Source of the DNA: Escherichia phage JN01
Sequence record: MN882542
Length of the DNA stretch: 64,000 nucleotides
Reading direction: 5' to 3' (one strand)
Shown here: piece by piece, positions 52,594 to 64,000 of the stretch
How the letters are laid out: each line of letters starts with the position of its first letter
Numbering within the stretch: position 1 is the first letter of the stretch
The notes under the pieces: generated by a model
The model's input: the letters and a program-made list of their open reading frames with translations, nothing else
The model's database searches: none
Told to the model about the DNA's origin: nothing
Program-made: the position numbers and the translations under genes

Positions 52594-57977
<5,384 letters not shown>

Positions 57978-59449: not shown

Positions 59450-60304
59450 ATGTTTGAAAAGATTGATAGTGTTTATTACAAAACACTTGATGAACGAACT
59501 GTAACACAGTTTAAAGATAAGTTTATCTACACAAGCATCTTGAAAGCAATCACTGATGAGTTACAAACACTAGAGGATGTTTGCTGGCAGATGCACACAG
59601 AGAGAAATATCAGGACATCAGTAGGTCAACAACTTGATAATATTGGCTCACTGATTAAAGTTCCTAGACCTTTAGGTGCTGATGATGAAACATATAGAGC
59701 TATGCTTTATATCCAAATCTTCCTAAGACGCTCTGACACTACTCCAACATTCTTGCAAAAAGCAATTATGACACTGTATGGTGCAACTTTCTCTCAGATT
59801 TTTGAGCATATTACTCCTAAGACTGGTGGTATCGTTATCCGTATCAACACTAGGAAAAGCGTTCTAGATGCTGCATATACACTGTCAAAGATTTCTGCAA
59901 CAACTACTGGTTCTGCTGTTATCTTAAGAGATGTTACTTTAAAAGGAACTGCTTGGACACCTGTAGAGGTTGCTGATTCAGCACTTGCTATTGTTGATGA
60001 TAAAGAGAACTGGTTCGTAACTGATGCTAACAGGGGTCTTGTTACAAATAACACTGGTGGCTCTCTGGAGTCCAACCTAGTAGGGAGTCTTGCAGATGCT
60101 GGTGTTATTGATGGTTACTTTAAGGTTGACAGAACAGCAAACTCACAGAGTGATGATTACATGACTGTAGATAGGTCTAATAATAGTGGATATTTCATCG
60201 TTGGTAAAGAAGCTGTTGCAGGTGGTGCATACGGAATCATGGCTGAGGTTGCACAAATTGTCAAAGGCAGAAAAGATAAATCACAACAAGAAGGAAATTC
60301 TTAA
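59450..60304 (+). CDS. baseplate/tail protein I-like (by position)
   Basis: 284 aa ORF. Confidence 0.4.
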
Positions 60305-60606
60305 TGGCAGTTTTAAATTGGTCTACAAATGAAGTGGATACTGATGGTAATCAGTTAAAAGTTTTACCACCACCGGAAATTCAAGAGACAGGTCTTTTAA
60401 AGGGTGAGCCTATGGGTAGACAGTGGTTCAACTATATTATCAACTACCTGCTGAATAAAGTAAACGGCACTGTTGGGGAAGTTCGCTCATATGCAACTGA
60501 GCAACCAGATTTAGTGGCTAATGGCTGGAATCTAATTAAGTCTGAGACAGGGACTGCATCAACAAGCACAAGAAACCTTTACACATATGAATATGTAGGA
60601 GCTTAA
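60304..60606 (+). CDS. hypothetical tail protein
   Basis: 100 aa ORF. Confidence 0.4.
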
Positions 60607-60608
60607 TA

Positions 60609-61784
60609 ATGGCAGTAGGTGAAATTCAAATTAGTGCCTTGCCACAAGCGGCCTTACCAATTGATTTGAGTGATATCTTCCATCTTAAGCAAGGTGTTGA
60701 GGATAAAAGATGTACGCTTGAACAGTTGTTAGCACCTCACACATCTTTGAGGAATAACCCTCATGGTGTAACTAAATCGCAAGTTGGTCTTGATAATGTT
60801 ATTAACTCACTCCAATTGGTCGCAGCTAATAACTTGTCAGACATTGTAGATGTTGCTGAGGCAAGAGCAAATCTACAGATTATGTCGTCAGATGAAGTGA
60901 GCAGTTTAATTCAGAGACATATCGACGACAAAAGTAACCCACACAACACAACGAAAGCACAGGTTGGTTTAAGTAATGTTCAGAACTGGACAACATCCAA
61001 CCTGTACAATGAAGATGCTGATAAATATGCTACCGCGAGAGCAGTGAATAATCTATACAAAGCTATCCAAGCATCATATCCAGTGGGGACTATTCATCTG
61101 TCTGTTAACTCTGCTAACCCATCCACTTACTTGCTTTGTGGAGGTACTTGGGAGTTGGTTTCTAAAGGTAGGGCGCTTGTTGGTTATGATACAGAAGCTA
61201 GACCTGTTGGTTCAACGTTCGGTTCTCAGACTGTAGCATTAACAAATAATAATTTACCAGCACACACCCACTCTATCTATTTAACAGGTGGTGGTCACAC
61301 ACACTCTGCAAGCGTATCTATCTCTAGTTTTGATTATGGTTCAAAAAGTACATCAACTTTTGATTACGGTACAAAAACGACTAATAGTGCTGGTGCTCAC
61401 ACTCACACGTTTAGCGGCACGACAAGTAATGATGGTAACCATAACCATAGAGTACCACTGAGAGGTAATGATAGAAGTGGGGGGGATGCTATTACTGCAT
61501 CTGCTTATGCTGGGGTTAATAATAATACGTATACTGATTTAGCAGGTGCTCACACCCATAGCTTCTCAGGCACAACTGCATCATCTGGTGCTCATAACCA
61601 TACTGTTGCAATTGGTGCTCATAGCCACACTGTTAATATTGGTTCACACAGTCATACGGGTACTGTTACTGTCTCTAGCTCTGAACATACACACTCAGGA
61701 ACATCTGGTTCTGTTGGTGGTGGTCAAGCTTTCAGTGTTGAACAGCCATCTTTTGTACTATATGTATGGCAGAGAACAGCTTAA
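60609..61784 (+). CDS. tail fiber protein with His-rich HxH repeats
   Basis: C-terminal half has repeated AHTHTFSGTTS, GAHTHSFSGTTASSGAHNHTVAIGAHSHTVNIGSHSHTGT motifs. Confidence 0.65.
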   Translation: MAVGEIQISALPQAALPIDLSDIFHLKQGVEDKRCTLEQLLAPHTSLRNNPHGVTKSQVGLDNVINSLQLVAANNLSDIVDVAEARANLQIMSSDEVSSLIQRHIDDKSNPHNTTKAQVGLSNVQNWTTSNLYNEDADKYATARAVNNLYKAIQASYPVGTIHLSVNSANPSTYLLCGGTWELVSKGRALVGYDTEARPVGSTFGSQTVALTNNNLPAHTHSIYLTGGGHTHSASVSISSFDYGSKSTSTFDYGTKTTNSAGAHTHTFSGTTSNDGNHNHRVPLRGNDRSGGDAITASAYAGVNNNTYTDLAGAHTHSFSGTTASSGAHNHTVAIGAHSHTVNIGSHSHTGTVTVSSSEHTHSGTSGSVGGGQAFSVEQPSFVLYVWQRTA

Positions 61785-61830
61785 TTTCTTTACAGGGGCT
61801 TTATAGCCCCTTTTAAGAGGAAAATTTATA

Positions 61831-64000
61831 ATGGCAGATTACAAATTGAGTCAATTAAACTCAATAGACACAATTCGTTCAGAAGACCTATTGCACATCA
61901 GAGTTAAGAAAAGACCTGAAATGTTGGGTGACGAAGACCGTAGAATGACCTATCAAGACTTCTTAGCTTCCTTCAAACTAGAAAGGTTTGTTCAGATTGC
62001 TGGGAGCACTATGATTGGGGATTTAGGTATTGTCAAGTTACTTTACGGTGGCAAGGCTGTATTTGACCCAACAGGCTCTTCTGAGATTACTATTGGGGAT
62101 GTTTTAAAGACTTTTAAACTTAACGCAAATGGTCTTAAACTCACTATTGCAGATGCTTCAAGGTCAGCAACTGTTTATCATACTTTGAATAAACCAAGCC
62201 CTAATGAACTTGGTATGAGAACTAATGAAGAGAATGATGCAAGATATGCAAGGCTTGCTGTTACAAACACATTCTCTGGAACTCAGAATATTCAAGGTGA
62301 TGCTAACTTACTTCGCCTTAGAAACCAAAATGCAAATAATGCACAATACATTGAAGGTGTAAACCTAGATGGTTCAGCTAGATGGTGGGTTGGTATTGGT
62401 AGTAATGGCTCTGACGAAGTAAAACTGTACAATAACAAATACAACTCAGTTTTGACTGTTGCAAGTAATATCTCTGTTAATAAGTCTTTAGCAATCACTG
62501 GACAAGTTCAACCTTCAGATTTCTCTAACTTAGATGCCAGATACTTTACTCAGACAGTTGCTAATCAGAGATTTGCACAGTTAGCTGCTAATAATAATTT
62601 TACTGGAACAAACACGTTTAGTAGAAACCTACTTATTATCAGTGATAGTGCTGCTTTAAGGTTGAAAAATGCAACATCTAGTTCCCTATTTATTCAGGGA
62701 GTTGACTCTCAGAATGCCAACAGATGGTATGTAGGGAATGGTGATAACACCGCCTCTGTGTTACTACACAACTATGTACATGGTTCAAATATTAGACTTG
62801 ATAATGGGTATATCTCAGTAAACCAAAATTTCAGAATCACTGGTCAAGTCCAACCTTCAGATTGGGCTAATATTGACTCTAGATATATTCCGGCAGCAAC
62901 TTTGAATACAATTGCAAGAACCAATGCAATGAATACTTTTAATGGTGTGCAGACAGTTGTTAGTGATAACGAAGGTCTAGTTATTAGAAACTCTACTCAG
63001 AGCAAGCCATTATATATTCGTGGTGTGGACACTGCTAATGTATCAAGATGGTGGATTGGTATTGGTGGTGCAGATAGTAATAACGTGACACTAAGTAACA
63101 GCTTTTCTGGGACTCAGATTTCTCTTGAGTCAACGTTAGTAAGTGTAAATAAGAATCTGTATATCAATGGTCAGGTTCAACCACAAGACTGGACTAATAT
63201 TGATGGGAGATACTATAACAAATCATCTGCTGATAGCAGATACCTGAGAATCAGAAGCACTGGATTTAACAATGTTAATGGGAATAAATGGGCTAAGATT
63301 GCTACTGTCACCATGCCACAAGGAACATCAACAGCAGTAATTGAACTATTTGGTGGTGCTGGTTTCAACTATGGTATATATAACCAAGCCTGTAAAACAG
63401 AAATTGTTCTTAGTACAGGGAATGGTAAACCAAAAGGCTTAAATGTTGTTGCATGGAAAAACGCACCGAATGATGTTGTAGGCCAAGTTGGTTATGTTAA
63501 TACCTCTGGTGATAATTATGACATTTATTGCTATGTTGGTGGTTATCAAAATGCTACGACAGCTAGGGTTCAGTCCTCAGATAATGCAACAGTACAACTG
63601 TTTGCATCCCCAGAGACATACGATAATGCTCCAGATGACTATGTTGCTGGGACAATTGCTTATTATTATACTAGTCTCTTGAAACCAACACCTACAGATA
63701 TTGGTGCATACACTAAAGCTGAAACTGACCAGAAAATTGCAGAAGCAATTAGTGACTCTACAGACCTGAATAAAATCTACCCAGTAGGTATTGTAACGTG
63801 GTTTAACAGTAATGTTAACCCTAATACAGCACTTCCTGGTCTAACTTGGACGTACCTGAATAATGGTGTTGGTAGAACTATTAGAATTGCAGCAGCAAAC
63901 GGTTCAGATGTTGCTACAACTGGTGGTTCAGATTCTGTAACGCTATCTGTTGGTAACTTACCTTCACACACACATAGTTTCTCTGCTACCACTTCATCAT
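61831..64000 (+). CDS. large tail fiber protein (3' end beyond window)
   Basis: Frame open from ATG 61831 to window end; three about 105 aa internal repeats (ITGQVQPSDxxNxDxRY); ends with LPSHTHSFSATTSS. Confidence 0.6.
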   Translation, partial: MADYKLSQLNSIDTIRSEDLLHIRVKKRPEMLGDEDRRMTYQDFLASFKLERFVQIAGSTMIGDLGIVKLLYGGKAVFDPTGSSEITIGDVLKTFKLNANGLKLTIADASRSATVYHTLNKPSPNELGMRTNEENDARYARLAVTNTFSGTQNIQGDANLLRLRNQNANNAQYIEGVNLDGSARWWVGIGSNGSDEVKLYNNKYNSVLTVASNISVNKSLAITGQVQPSDFSNLDARYFTQTVANQRFAQLAANNNFTGTNTFSRNLLIISDSAALRLKNATSSSLFIQGVDSQNANRWYVGNGDNTASVLLHNYVHGSNIRLDNGYISVNQNFRITGQVQPSDWANIDSRYIPAATLNTIARTNAMNTFNGVQTVVSDNEGLVIRNSTQSKPLYIRGVDTANVSRWWIGIGGADSNNVTLSNSFSGTQISLESTLVSVNKNLYINGQVQPQDWTNIDGRYYNKSSADSRYLRIRSTGFNNVNGNKWAKIATVTMPQGTSTAVIELFGGAGFNYGIYNQACKTEIVLSTGNGKPKGLNVVAWKNAPNDVVGQVGYVNTSGDNYDIYCYVGGYQNATTARVQSSDNATVQLFASPETYDNAPDDYVAGTIAYYYTSLLKPTPTDIGAYTKAETDQKIAEAISDSTDLNKIYPVGIVTWFNSNVNPNTALPGLTWTYLNNGVGRTIRIAAANGSDVATTGGSDSVTLSVGNLPSHTHSFSATTSS
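62270..63230 (+). repeat. intragenic tandem repeats (about 320 bp, 3 copies) in the large tail fiber gene
   Basis: Protein-level repeats around NGQVQP(S/Q)D(F/W)xNxDxRY recur about every 105 aa. Confidence 0.5.

Follow-up and report, generated by a model that had tools for sequence, protein, structure and literature searches.

The window, by which we mean the whole 64,000-nucleotide stretch of sequence record MN882542 (Escherichia phage JN01), ends in two neighboring genes that share HxH motifs, the larger of which is also repetitive. This raises the questions of what the two genes encode, whether their likeness is more than compositional, and how the repeats have evolved. We put the probability at about 0.9 that both encode receptor-recognition fibers with gp37-type HxH tips, with a triplicated pyramid shaft in the longer one and recombination of cassettes between phages.

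The locus encodes the fiber pair of a Felixounavirus

The window is from a Felixounavirus, a Felix O1-like myovirus. A megablast search with the fiber region returned 228 records at 90 to 98% nucleotide identity, many of them Felixounavirus genomes, and in 51 of the 228 the match spans 80% or more of the query; the two genes are therefore close relatives of the fiber genes of classified Felixounavirus genomes. All features described here lie on the plus strand. The first gene (positions 60609 to 61784, 391 amino acids [aa]) matched the tail fiber family phrog_2097 (E = 2e-137) and the second (61831 to 63999, the first 723 codons from an ATG at 61831, open to the window end) matched phrog_4277 (E = 0, covering 1 to 663 of 780). 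Together with the nucleotide and protein matches to relatives, these results identify the two reading frames, at the level of sequence, as the short tail fiber (STF) and long tail fiber (LTF) genes, upholding the tail fiber identity proposed in a first-pass annotation of this DNA.

The open reading frame list gives the order J-like wedge protein (489 aa), wedge 1 (284 aa), a 100-aa platform protein, a fiber of about 390 aa and a fiber of 780 to 850 aa. An identical wedge/platform/STF/LTF order was found in wV8, PHB11, HY02, Mushroom, Felix O1, and others, and on contigs L015 and L016, and the pair occupies the position in the structural module of Felixounavirus STF/LTF pairs of the Bas63 gp26/gp27 type. 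The 100-aa protein (60304 to 60606) matched phrog_4141 (8e-61) and has the same place in wV8, Felix O1, and others. From synteny and length only, we take its product to be the counterpart of Bas63 gp25, the "LTF-platform," which is the attachment point of the long fiber on the baseplate (PMC12609058). No gp38- or gp57A-type chaperone gene adjoins the fiber genes; on L015, the LTF gene is followed by genes for a 65-aa protein and then a 123-aa protein, the latter a holin by annotation in relatives.

The STF orthologs are wV8 gp82, Felix O1 NP_944921, Bas63 gp26, and Sf14 gp52, and those of the LTF are wV8 gp83, Felix O1 NP_944923, Bas63 gp27, and Sf14 gp53. The STF protein is 94 to 99.5% identical to several Felixounavirus STFs (99.5% for phage SP3_SHan-2021), and the exact protein was found on two metagenome contigs. 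Bas63 is Escherichia phage JohannRWettstein, with gp26 as its STF and gp27 as its LTF (PMC12609058); these two proteins and their Sf14 counterparts, gp52 and gp53 (PMC11821841), were described by cryo-electron microscopy (cryo-EM) in 2025. Both phages are of the same genus or subfamily as the window and resemble it in gene order (wedge 2, wedge 1, platform, STF, LTF), in protein lengths (391 aa for the STF and about 790 to 850 aa for the LTF), in the collar, HxH needle, and head of both fibers, in the repeated beta domains of the LTF with conserved helical linkers between them, and in the variability of tips and repeats.

The fiber architecture is thus already known, having been published in 2025 for close relatives, and the earlier description of it is correct. 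Reading the two genes as STF and LTF adds little to the knowledge of a well-understood phage organ, and its practical value is one of annotation, as many records still list both genes under "hypothetical" or, worse, under "capsid and scaffold protein."

The HxH motifs of the STF are not a product of composition

The STF begins with a putative baseplate-binding region (residues 1 to 45, 60609 to 60743) that contains the motif ..GVEDKRCTLEQLLA and whose role is taken from the cryo-EM papers. LTF residues 18 to 46 (..GDEDRRMTYQDFLA) resemble this region weakly, with a Smith-Waterman z of 3.9 and a score reached by 23 of 5,000 shuffles; the N-terminal motif has also been noted for Sf14 gp52 and gp53 (PMC11821841). 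A shaft follows (60756 to 60980) in which a regular-expression search located two copies of NPHxxTKxQVGLxNV, at residues 50 to 64 and 110 to 124. His44, His52, and His112 are nearly invariant among 48 homologs, and residues 100 to 131 are matched by many PHROG tail families.

The first-pass annotation had pointed to a dense block of (A/S)H(T/N/S)H motifs in this protein, and such a block is present. The STF contains 24 histidines, and HxH occurs in it nine times, starting at residues 219, 230, 264, 278, 315, 329, 338, 347, and 360; six of these motifs have that exact form, the remaining three being GHTH, NHNH, and EHTH. Composition-preserving shuffles of the STF gave a mean of 1.4 and a maximum of 8 HxH motifs, and nine were reached in 0 of 100,000; nor were nine ever reached when block 210 to 370 alone was shuffled. 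No open reading frame in the window other than the STF has more than two. In the 48 homologs, both histidines of each motif are kept or lost together (e.g., 38/38/38, 39/39/39, and 48/48/48), and the middle residue varies; the needle pairs at 230, 264, and 278 are co-conserved in 38 to 48 of the 48. The STF HxH motifs are nonrandom and under selection.

Both fibers end in a gp37-type tip

As a structural reference we used PDB entry 2XGF, the T4 gp37 receptor-binding tip of Bartual et al. (2010). STF residues 146 to 362 matched it with an E value of 3.1e-27, and homology extends across collar, needle, and head, with HxH motifs of the STF at iron-coordinating positions. The 103 ungapped columns shared by the STF and 2XGF hold six of the seven iron-binding HxH motifs of T4 in exact register (motifs 2 to 7); HMMER aligns motif 1 with an offset of two residues.

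The STF tip was divided on this basis. The collar (residues 154 to 225, YPVG...NLPAHTHS, 61068 to 61283) is of the Gp10_C type, matching Pfam PF21939 with 67.4 bits against a gathering threshold of 27 (3.4e-18), and it also matches the T4 gp10 C-terminal domain 2FKK (4.5e-6) and the 2XGF collar. It contains the first, collar-proximal motif, HxH 219, which T4 gp37 lacks. By alignment to 2XGF, the ascending needle strand (residues 226 to 280, 61284 to 61448) carries HxH 230, 264, and 278, the equivalents of T4 motifs 1 to 3, and a duplicated FDYG(S/T)K motif. For the head (residues 281 to 312, 61449 to 61544), the alignment to the T4 gp37 head segment, which separates HxH motif 3 from motif 4, is free of gaps. 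Column entropy among the 48 homologs is maximal at residues 286 to 300, within the head, and substitutions between the window and wV8 STFs are concentrated there; the head is hypervariable and is presumed to be the receptor-contact tip. The descending strand and C terminus (residues 313 to 391, 61545 to 61784), delimited by 2XGF and homologs, hold HxH 315, 329, 338, and 347 (T4 motifs 4 to 7) and an additional HxH at 360, followed by GGGQAFSVEQPSFVLYVWQRTA; a C-terminal AFSV...W.RTA is common to the STF and LTF. T4 gp37 thus resembles the STF in collar, needle, and head, in the length of the head segment, and in a C terminus predicted to return toward the collar. In contrast, the STF is a 391-aa single-protein fiber on the baseplate, whereas gp37 forms the distal quarter of a four-protein fiber, and the STF has two extra collar-proximal motifs (219 and 360).

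The Gp10_C match raises an alternative in which the 391-aa protein would not be a receptor-binding fiber but a structural adaptor in the baseplate, like T4 gp10, with the His-rich part as a structural spacer. Gp10_C is the only above-threshold Pfam domain in the STF, PDB sequence matches include T4 gp10 (2FKK and 5HX2), and the weak Foldseek matches are to the gp10 family. However, the gp10 similarity is confined to the collar (residues 144 to 240) and leaves the N-terminal domains of gp10 unmatched, whereas the far stronger gp37 tip match (E = 3e-27) includes needle and head; the C-terminal domain, PF21939, is matched by both fiber collars, no other domain is shared, and T4 gp10 is a baseplate protein without needle or head. 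In addition, a hypervariable head suits a receptor-contact surface, and a fiber of 430 angstroms is seen in the cryo-EM work on Bas63 and Sf14 (PMC12609058, PMC11821841). We therefore regard an adaptor as very unlikely and retain the receptor-recognition fiber.

Between the two genes lies a hairpin (AGGGGCU-UUAU-AGCCCCU followed by UUUU, 61794 to 61811; fold -16.5 kcal/mol, z = -2.5), with an AAGAGGA ribosome-binding site between it and the LTF start codon. The equivalent site in wV8 is annotated as a rho-independent terminator, and the hairpin is kept in SP3. A simple consensus scan missed it because its T run is too short.

The in-window part of the LTF terminates in ...VGNLPSHTHSFSATTSS. 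Its neck helix and collar (residues 613 to 723, 63667 to 63999), which read ...DLNKIYPVG...NLPSHTHSFSATTSS, were recognized by Gp10_C similarity and STF homology; the Gp10_C score was 26.5 bits (threshold, 27), for a domain that the window end truncates after 83 of the 139 profile positions. This region is 88 to 94% identical in nucleotide sequence in all Felixounavirus relatives compared. The sole LTF HxH inside the window lies at residues 713 to 715 (63967 to 63975), so that the downstream partial fiber does finish in a His motif, as had been noted. Because the rest of the LTF tip falls outside the window, it was read from near-identical contigs. L015 and L016 are 99.4 and 99.75% identical to the window at the nucleotide level. 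The LTF that they encode is 849 aa long, and three differences separate it from the window LTF in the 723 aa common to both; the full-length LTF of the window is almost certainly also 849 aa. The complete LTF on 99.75%-identical contigs has four HxH motifs.

An LTF ortholog matched 2XGF with an E value of 5.5e-7 over residues 706 to 827, and the STF and LTF matched each other by BLASTP with an E value of 7e-17. Against shuffles, the similarity of the collars alone has a z of 13.9 and that of the His-rich tips alone a z of 11.9. These comparisons indicate that the STF and LTF are homologous in both collar and His-rich tip, as the first-pass annotation had suggested in proposing a shared T4-type tip; aligning the two His-rich blocks, the check it named, gave similarity beyond composition. 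The same conclusion has been published for Bas63 gp26 and gp27 (PMC12609058).

A purely compositional origin, in which low-complexity Gly/Ser/Thr/His sequence would account for both the HxH richness and the STF-LTF resemblance with neither homology nor function, can draw on the bias of the tip (HMMER bias scores of 23 to 31) and on repetitive codons that yield an out-of-frame 86-aa open reading frame (61546 to 61806). It is refuted by the HxH shuffles, by positional co-conservation of the His pairs in homologs down to 40% identity, and by the tip score, which 0 of 2,000 shuffles reached; the BLASTP value of 7e-17 is itself compositionally adjusted. We give this explanation practically no weight.

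An AlphaFold2 monomer model of the STF had a pLDDT of 63 and a pTM of 0.26, with the collar alone confidently modeled (pLDDT 79 to 88), and a Foldseek search of this model against the PDB returned no match below an E value of 1e-3. Such an outcome is expected for an intertwined trimer; the predicted needle geometry and metal sites accordingly derive from sequence homology and published work. A six-stranded trimeric needle with histidines facing the three-fold axis has been reported for the Bas63 homologs from cryo-EM-fitted AlphaFold models (PMC12609058).

The LTF shaft contains three diverged copies of a protein domain

The LTF N-terminal part (residues 1 to 143, 61831 to 62259), comprising the putative baseplate-binding region and first shaft domain, was delimited by its identity to relatives (89 to 97% at the nucleotide level in all Felixounavirus relatives compared) and has no significant similarity to the repeats. 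Pfam PF20744 (gp37_trimer) matches the LTF three times (E = 2.4e-76, 252.3 bits; threshold, 21.7 bits). With Smith-Waterman alignment, these matches define R1 (residues 144 to 251, 62260 to 62583), with a pyramid-like core and the linker ..ITGQVQPSDFSNLDARYFTQT, R2 (residues 252 to 365, 62584 to 62925), and R3 (residues 366 to 471, 62926 to 63243), which are 324, 342, and 318 nucleotides (108, 114, and 106 aa) long. The repeats are 40 to 45% identical in pairwise protein comparisons (z, 20 to 30). The non-repeat, globular middle domain D4 follows (residues 472 to 612, 63244 to 63666), as defined by ortholog alignment and segment identities; PHROG matches cover residues 478 to 629. D4 is of a long form in the window, wV8, HY02, Mushroom, finno, and HP1 and of a form about 60 aa smaller in PHB11, Pr103Blw, MET-P1-301, CL1, and Felix O1. 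The best DNA match for the D4 stretch of the window is only about 87%, and at the DNA level it is a fairly new variant.

A profile of the repeat cores matched T7 gp17 residues 368 to 436 (E = 2.3e-7) and Mu S (0.027). The cores thus resemble the T7 gp17 pyramid domain (4A0T and 7BOZ), Mu fiber protein S (5YVQ), and PF20744, and the same T7 gp17 similarity has been reported for Sf14 gp53 (PMC11821841). The LTF differs in having three tandem copies of the pyramid domain in its shaft and, beyond them, a gp37-type tip in place of the T7 gp17 tip domain.

The first-pass annotation had read these units both as three repeats of about 105 aa and as internal DNA tandem repeats of about 320 bp. The protein repeats are real. 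Compared as DNA, the units share only about 54% identity and were not reported by Tandem Repeats Finder; what is repeated is a protein domain, and the term DNA tandem repeat, as ordinarily understood, does not apply. An active array, in which slippage or unequal crossing-over would make fiber length vary among strains, would fit the head-to-tail arrangement with similar periods (324, 342, and 318 nucleotides) and the conserved 76-nucleotide core, the only repeat detectable in the DNA, which recurs at spacings of 342 and 327 nucleotides with 62 to 72% identity. Yet the three GQVxPxD linkers are present in 12 of 12 relatives, counting the variant third linker of SP3 (..PSN), so that the suggested comparison of repeat number gave three copies throughout; repeat number is likewise without variation in the Bas63 paper (PMC12609058). 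Core types are position specific, and alignment of LTF orthologs traced length differences to D4 and the tip. An active array is therefore extremely unlikely, and the sequence comparisons identify the repeats as old duplications of a T7 gp17 pyramid-like protein domain.

Proposed architecture of the two fibers

From homologs and the literature, we infer the trimeric state, needle topology, metal binding, attachment sites, and LPS receptor. Each fiber would be a homotrimer with its N terminus on the baseplate, the STF anchored by the J-like wedge protein and the LTF by the 100-aa protein encoded just upstream of the STF. In each tip, a short helical neck would lead into a Gp10_C collar starting with YPVG, from which the chain would run out along a thin needle, form a small hypervariable head, and return to the collar; since it runs out and back in a trimer, the needle would be six-stranded. 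At each HxH level, three chains would place six histidines around one metal ion, and the predicted ions would rivet the needle. In T4 gp37, the metal ion is Fe2+. The STF has nine HxH motifs, the seven of T4 plus two collar-proximal ones, and the LTF of this lineage four, with a head about twice as large. [quoted passage not shown] The head would touch the receptor, probably the LPS core for this phage group; the part of the LPS bound by each fiber is left unsettled in PMC8594841 and PMC11821841. Each LTF shaft unit, of about 105 aa and present in three diverged copies, combines a T7 gp17 pyramid-like beta domain with a conserved linker. Homologous recombination between phages at linkers, collar, and His or FDYGTKT motifs would swap cores, middle domain, or head as a whole. 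The published fits from cryo-EM and AlphaFold agree with this architecture for both Bas63 and Sf14 (PMC12609058, PMC11821841).

Cores, middle domain, and tips vary as cassettes

Nucleotide identity of relatives to the window is 85 to 97% in linkers, N terminus, and collar, whereas the cores are either 88 to 97% or 43 to 52% identical, in a combination that differs from phage to phage. Between PHB11 and the window LTF, for example, identity passes from 95 to 97% to 44 to 46% in adjoining segments and then back. We distinguished 17 position-specific core types; those at different repeat positions are at most 47% identical, and each of the four possible R1 x R2 pairings occurs. R1 of the window is of cassette type A, common to wV8, Felix O1, and others, with unrelated types in PHB11, HY02, CL1, and HP1. 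R2 is of type C, 87 to 90% identical to that of HY02, Pr103Blw, and Felix O1 and 46 to 52% identical to that of other relatives, and R3 is of type B.

These data support a model in which repeat cores, middle domain, and tip are separate cassettes, reshuffled between linkers that do not vary, with exchange taking place between phages, in register, at conserved linkers and conserved tip motifs. With repeat copy number constant, the exchange is not slippage among the internal repeats. Shaft variability could instead reflect relaxed constraint and mutational drift in situ: mutation tolerance is listed as a possible cause by the Bas63 authors (PMC12609058), and beta-rich fiber domains tolerate many substitutions. 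However, identity is bimodal rather than graded, and one core type recurs at 88 to 97% in otherwise different combinations; drift cannot produce bimodal identity together with all four R1 x R2 combinations, and we consider it unlikely. The earlier proposal of hotspots for host-range recombination is thus borne out by the cassettes as far as exchange is concerned, and an effect of fiber recombination on host range is something we infer only.

The cassette pattern offers a recombination-based answer to the shaft-repeat variability left open by the 2025 Bas63 paper, and is still one case of the long-known mosaicism of tail fiber genes. As a more speculative extension, one we think possible but would bet against, fixed junctions (linkers, collar, and His/FDYGTKT motifs) may allow shaft pyramid domains, D4, and head to be reassorted independently, the head to be copied between STF and LTF, and the shaft cores to bind glycans laterally or serve as targets of host defense. 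If the shaft cores do bind surface glycans laterally or are such targets, this would answer the open question of the Bas63 authors about domain variability. Diagnostics and biocontrol of Salmonella and E. coli make use of Felix O1-type phages, and a domain map that marks the linkers, the collar, FDYGTKT, and the HxH boxes as junctions could guide the engineering of chimeric fibers in these phages.

A passage of PMC3157838 citing Tetart et al. (1996, 1998) describes T-even distal-fiber adhesins in which exchanges occur in or beside the most conserved motifs and variable specificity segments are swapped. The junctions of the window lineage (GQVQPSD linkers, FDYGTKT, and HxH boxes) are analogous, although the phage group is different, and both the in-register exchange of whole shaft domains and the exchange between STF and LTF in one genome are known here by comparison alone. 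The latter is seen in Felix O1 and Mushroom, where the two fibers share a head block of about 70 residues at 81 to 85% nucleotide identity. Tip type and the host used for isolation correspond only loosely: SP3_SHan-2021, a phage obtained on Salmonella, has an "E. coli-type" STF.

A T4 gp37-type tip on both tail fibers

The short tail fiber (STF) gene, at 60609-61784 (+), encodes a 391-aa protein; after a 46-nt spacer, the long tail fiber (LTF) gene starts at ATG 61831 and runs without a stop codon for 723 codons, up to the window's edge, where it reads ...VGNLPSHTHSFSATTSS. The fiber region was 90-98% identical to that of many Felix O1-like myoviruses of the genus Felixounavirus (including wV8, HY02, and PHB11), with which it shares the gene order tape measure, hub, spike, wedges, 100-aa protein, STF, LTF. 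Two metagenome contigs that match the window at 99.4% and 99.75% identity encode the exact 391-aa STF, and on both the LTF is complete at 849 aa, differing from the window's LTF at 3 of the 723 residues they have in common.

STF residues 146-362 matched the sequence of the T4 gp37 receptor-binding tip (PDB entry 2XGF) with E=3e-27. A 103-column ungapped block placed six of T4's seven iron-binding HxH motifs, together with the intervening head segment, in exact register, and the remaining T4 motif lay 2 residues off register. STF HxH motifs 219 and 360, adjoining the collar, are without counterpart in T4 gp37. The STF collar matched Pfam Gp10_C and the C-terminal domain of T4 gp10. An LTF ortholog also matched 2XGF (5.5e-7), and BLASTP of STF against LTF with compositional adjustment on gave 7e-17. 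When the parts were aligned separately, the collar alone (both copies within the window) scored z=13.9 and the His-rich tip alone z=11.9, scores reached by 0/2000 shuffles in either case. By sequence comparison, STF and LTF are homologous to each other; the first-pass annotation's proposal of a shared T4-type tip was borne out, and its two His-rich segments are alike beyond composition.

The dense HxH block reported in the 391-aa fiber was likewise confirmed. The STF contains 24 His residues and nine HxH motifs, all within residues 219-362; shuffled STF sequences held a mean of 1.4 HxH motifs, or 1.9 when the block 210-370 was shuffled alone, and nine were reached in 0/100,000 shuffles either way. 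No other ORF of the window had more than two. In the LTF tip encoded on the metagenome contigs, HxH occurs four times, at 713, 737, 807, and 816. Across 48 STF homologs, down to 40% identity, both His residues of each motif were kept or lost jointly while the middle residue varied, and the variability maximum fell in the head, at residues 286-300. This pattern would fit a metal-riveted needle with a variable receptor-contact head.

An AlphaFold2 model of the STF monomer, built from the 48-sequence alignment, reached pLDDT 63 and pTM 0.26, with the collar alone confident, where an intertwined trimer is expected. A Foldseek search of this monomer against the PDB gave no match below E=1e-3, the best being to the gp10 family (0.014-0.09). 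Because monomer prediction is uninformative for an intertwined trimer, the fiber topology rests on homology and published work.

Cryo-electron microscopy of Bas63 resolved a 430-angstrom STF (gp26) and a 630-angstrom LTF (gp27), each of which combines a gp37-like collar with an HxH needle and a head; in the LTF, beta domains are repeated with helical linkers between them, and this fiber is attached via a small platform protein (PMC12609058). Compared by published description, the window's fibers correspond to this gp26/gp27 pair. The same two fibers occur in Sf14, the longer with T7 gp17 pyramid-like and Mu-like domains and the shorter with a gp10_C-like domain (PMC11821841). Felix O1-type phages need the lipopolysaccharide core (PMC8594841, PMC11821841). 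Nothing on the Bas63 fiber genes appears in the PhageMaP preprint. The window's fiber pair is a known, textbook-type receptor-binding apparatus, its structure described in close relatives in 2025, and the observation and interpretation of the first-pass annotation were essentially right. We make three modest additions: in the window's lineage the STF carries nine HxH motifs and the LTF four; the shaft domains vary as position-specific cassettes; and in Felix O1 and Mushroom the STF and LTF of one genome share a head. Each lies within the known mosaicism of tail-fiber genes.

The LTF repeats are protein domain duplications

The LTF contains three consecutive repeat units (R1 to R3, each a core plus a conserved linker), at 62260-62583, 62584-62925, and 62926-63243 (+). 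Pairwise protein identity between units was 40-45%, with z values of 20-30 (Smith-Waterman with shuffles), and Pfam gp37_trimer matched three times (E=2.4e-76). An internal tandem repeat of about 320 bp had been claimed. The three protein repeats of about 105 aa stood, but a DNA tandem array did not: the units share only about 54% DNA identity, with a recognizable core limited to 76 nt, and Tandem Repeats Finder returned nothing at about 320 nt in 60000-64000. The sole periodicity found there, of 27 nt, lies inside the HxH block. The repeats are ancient domain duplications.

A repeat-core profile matched T7 gp17 residues 368-436 (E=2.3e-7) and Mu S (0.027), reproducing the likeness to T7 gp17 pyramid-like and Mu-like domains noted for the longer Sf14 fiber (PMC11821841). 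The structural similarity of the repeats to T4 gp34 reported for Bas63 (PMC12609058) had no sequence-level match in T4 gp34 (5NXH).

Exchange of shaft domains between relatives

An alignment of eleven long fibers revealed discrete types of each repeat core, of the middle domain D4, and of the tip, whereas the N-terminus, linkers, and collar were nearly invariant. D4 (63244-63666) has the lowest DNA conservation of the region, with a best match in the phage collection of about 87%; among relatives it is either long or about 60 aa shorter, and both versions are found freely combined with either tip type, of four or six HxH motifs. The Bas63 study places most of the variability in the tips and repeat domains and reports a constant repeat number (PMC12609058).

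Nucleotide identity to the window was bimodal along the LTF. From the N-terminus onward, PHB11 was 97% identical, then 44% in the R1 core, 96% in the linker, 46% in the R2 core, 83% in the next linker, 48% in the R3 core, and 93% in the collar. The three cores of wV8 were 97%, 52%, and 76% identical to those of the window, and those of HY02 were 45%, 90%, and 43%. The 36 repeat cores fell into 17 types, each restricted to a single repeat position, and two R1 types occurred with two R2 types in 4/4 combinations. Drift would also produce variable cores but was rejected as their source, given the bimodal identity and the reassortment of R1 with R2 types. Slippage among the repeats was discarded as well, with every core type position-bound and cross-position identity at most 47%. 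The position-bound types and the 4/4 R1-R2 combinations support in-register cassette exchange at the conserved linkers.

Heads shared between STF and LTF

Within the Felix O1 genome, STF nucleotides 748-1017 and LTF nucleotides 1990-2259 form a shared 270-nt block; within Mushroom, STF nucleotides 751-945 and LTF nucleotides 2164-2358 share 195 nt. These blocks, 81-85% identical at the DNA level, contain the complete head with two HxH motifs before it and one after it. The encoded proteins are about 90% identical over about 70 residues that begin at FDYGTKT, take in the head, and end at the HxH following it, compared with 32% for the same region in the window's lineage. Because these blocks are shared, heads appear to have moved between STF and LTF genes with boundaries at conserved motifs, and in Felix O1 and Mushroom, but not in the window's lineage, both fibers probably present a nearly identical receptor-contact head. 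T-even adhesins are described as behaving in the same way (Tetart et al., cited in PMC3157838). Together with the cassette pattern, the shared heads give comparative support to the predicted recombination in repeats and tips.

A further candidate for a tip swap was left out of the evidence. In Salmonella phage SP3_SHan-2021 (SP3; MW296865.1, in stretches L008:4223-6902 and L014:1-288 of the record), an annotated 821-aa 'tail fiber' consists of LTF residues 1-586 joined at the collar sequence YPVG to STF residues 157-391, and over its last 708 nt it matches SP3's own STF at 100% identity. Beyond the chimera, the intergenic hairpin appears again, followed by LTF codons 1-55, where the record ends; the opposite end of the record opens within the 3' end of a normal LTF, and about 110 codons that would connect the two are absent. 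With this duplication and gap, the chimera is probably not real, a permuted contig having been looped at its ends during assembly. The same record labels the STF 'capsid and scaffold protein.'

Other features of the fiber module

In the STF-LTF spacer, at 61794-61811, RNA folding placed a GC-rich hairpin with a stem of 7 bp and a UUAU loop, followed by UUUU. The wV8 record lists the equivalent site as a rho-independent terminator, and SP3 retains the hairpin; a consensus terminator scan did not call it. The hairpin could lower LTF expression relative to STF. Long-fiber occupancy is variable in Bas63 virions (PMC12609058).

In the STF shaft, the motif NPHxxTKxQVGLxNV occurs twice (60756-60800 and 60936-60980) and was seen across many unrelated PHROG tail/structural families (matches at residues 100-131). 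An 86-aa ORF in another frame (61546-61806, +), inside the His-rich part of the STF, most likely results from the repetitive codons there and is not a gene. The 207-aa baseplate spike (56936-57559, +) also has a C-terminal HxH, at residues 188-190, the counterpart of the iron-binding di-histidine that Bas63 is reported to have at H188/H190 of its puncturing apparatus. The spike would be a third HxH metal-site protein of the same module.

Two annotated genes stand at the LTF position in Erwinia phage phiEa104 (Kolesnikvirus; L009:4662-6914), a 502-aa 'putative proximal tail fiber' and a 244-aa 'putative tail fiber protein,' which suggests a split or different long-fiber organization in this more distant relative. 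Hits H23, H49, and H50 (MG065664.1, MG065668.1) matched Felixounavirus fiber genes at 81-85% nucleotide identity under the names 'Campylobacter phage A132/A126' (host Campylobacter jejuni) and, for one record, 'Staphylococcus'; because the host assignment is unlikely, these records are possibly contaminated or mislabeled.
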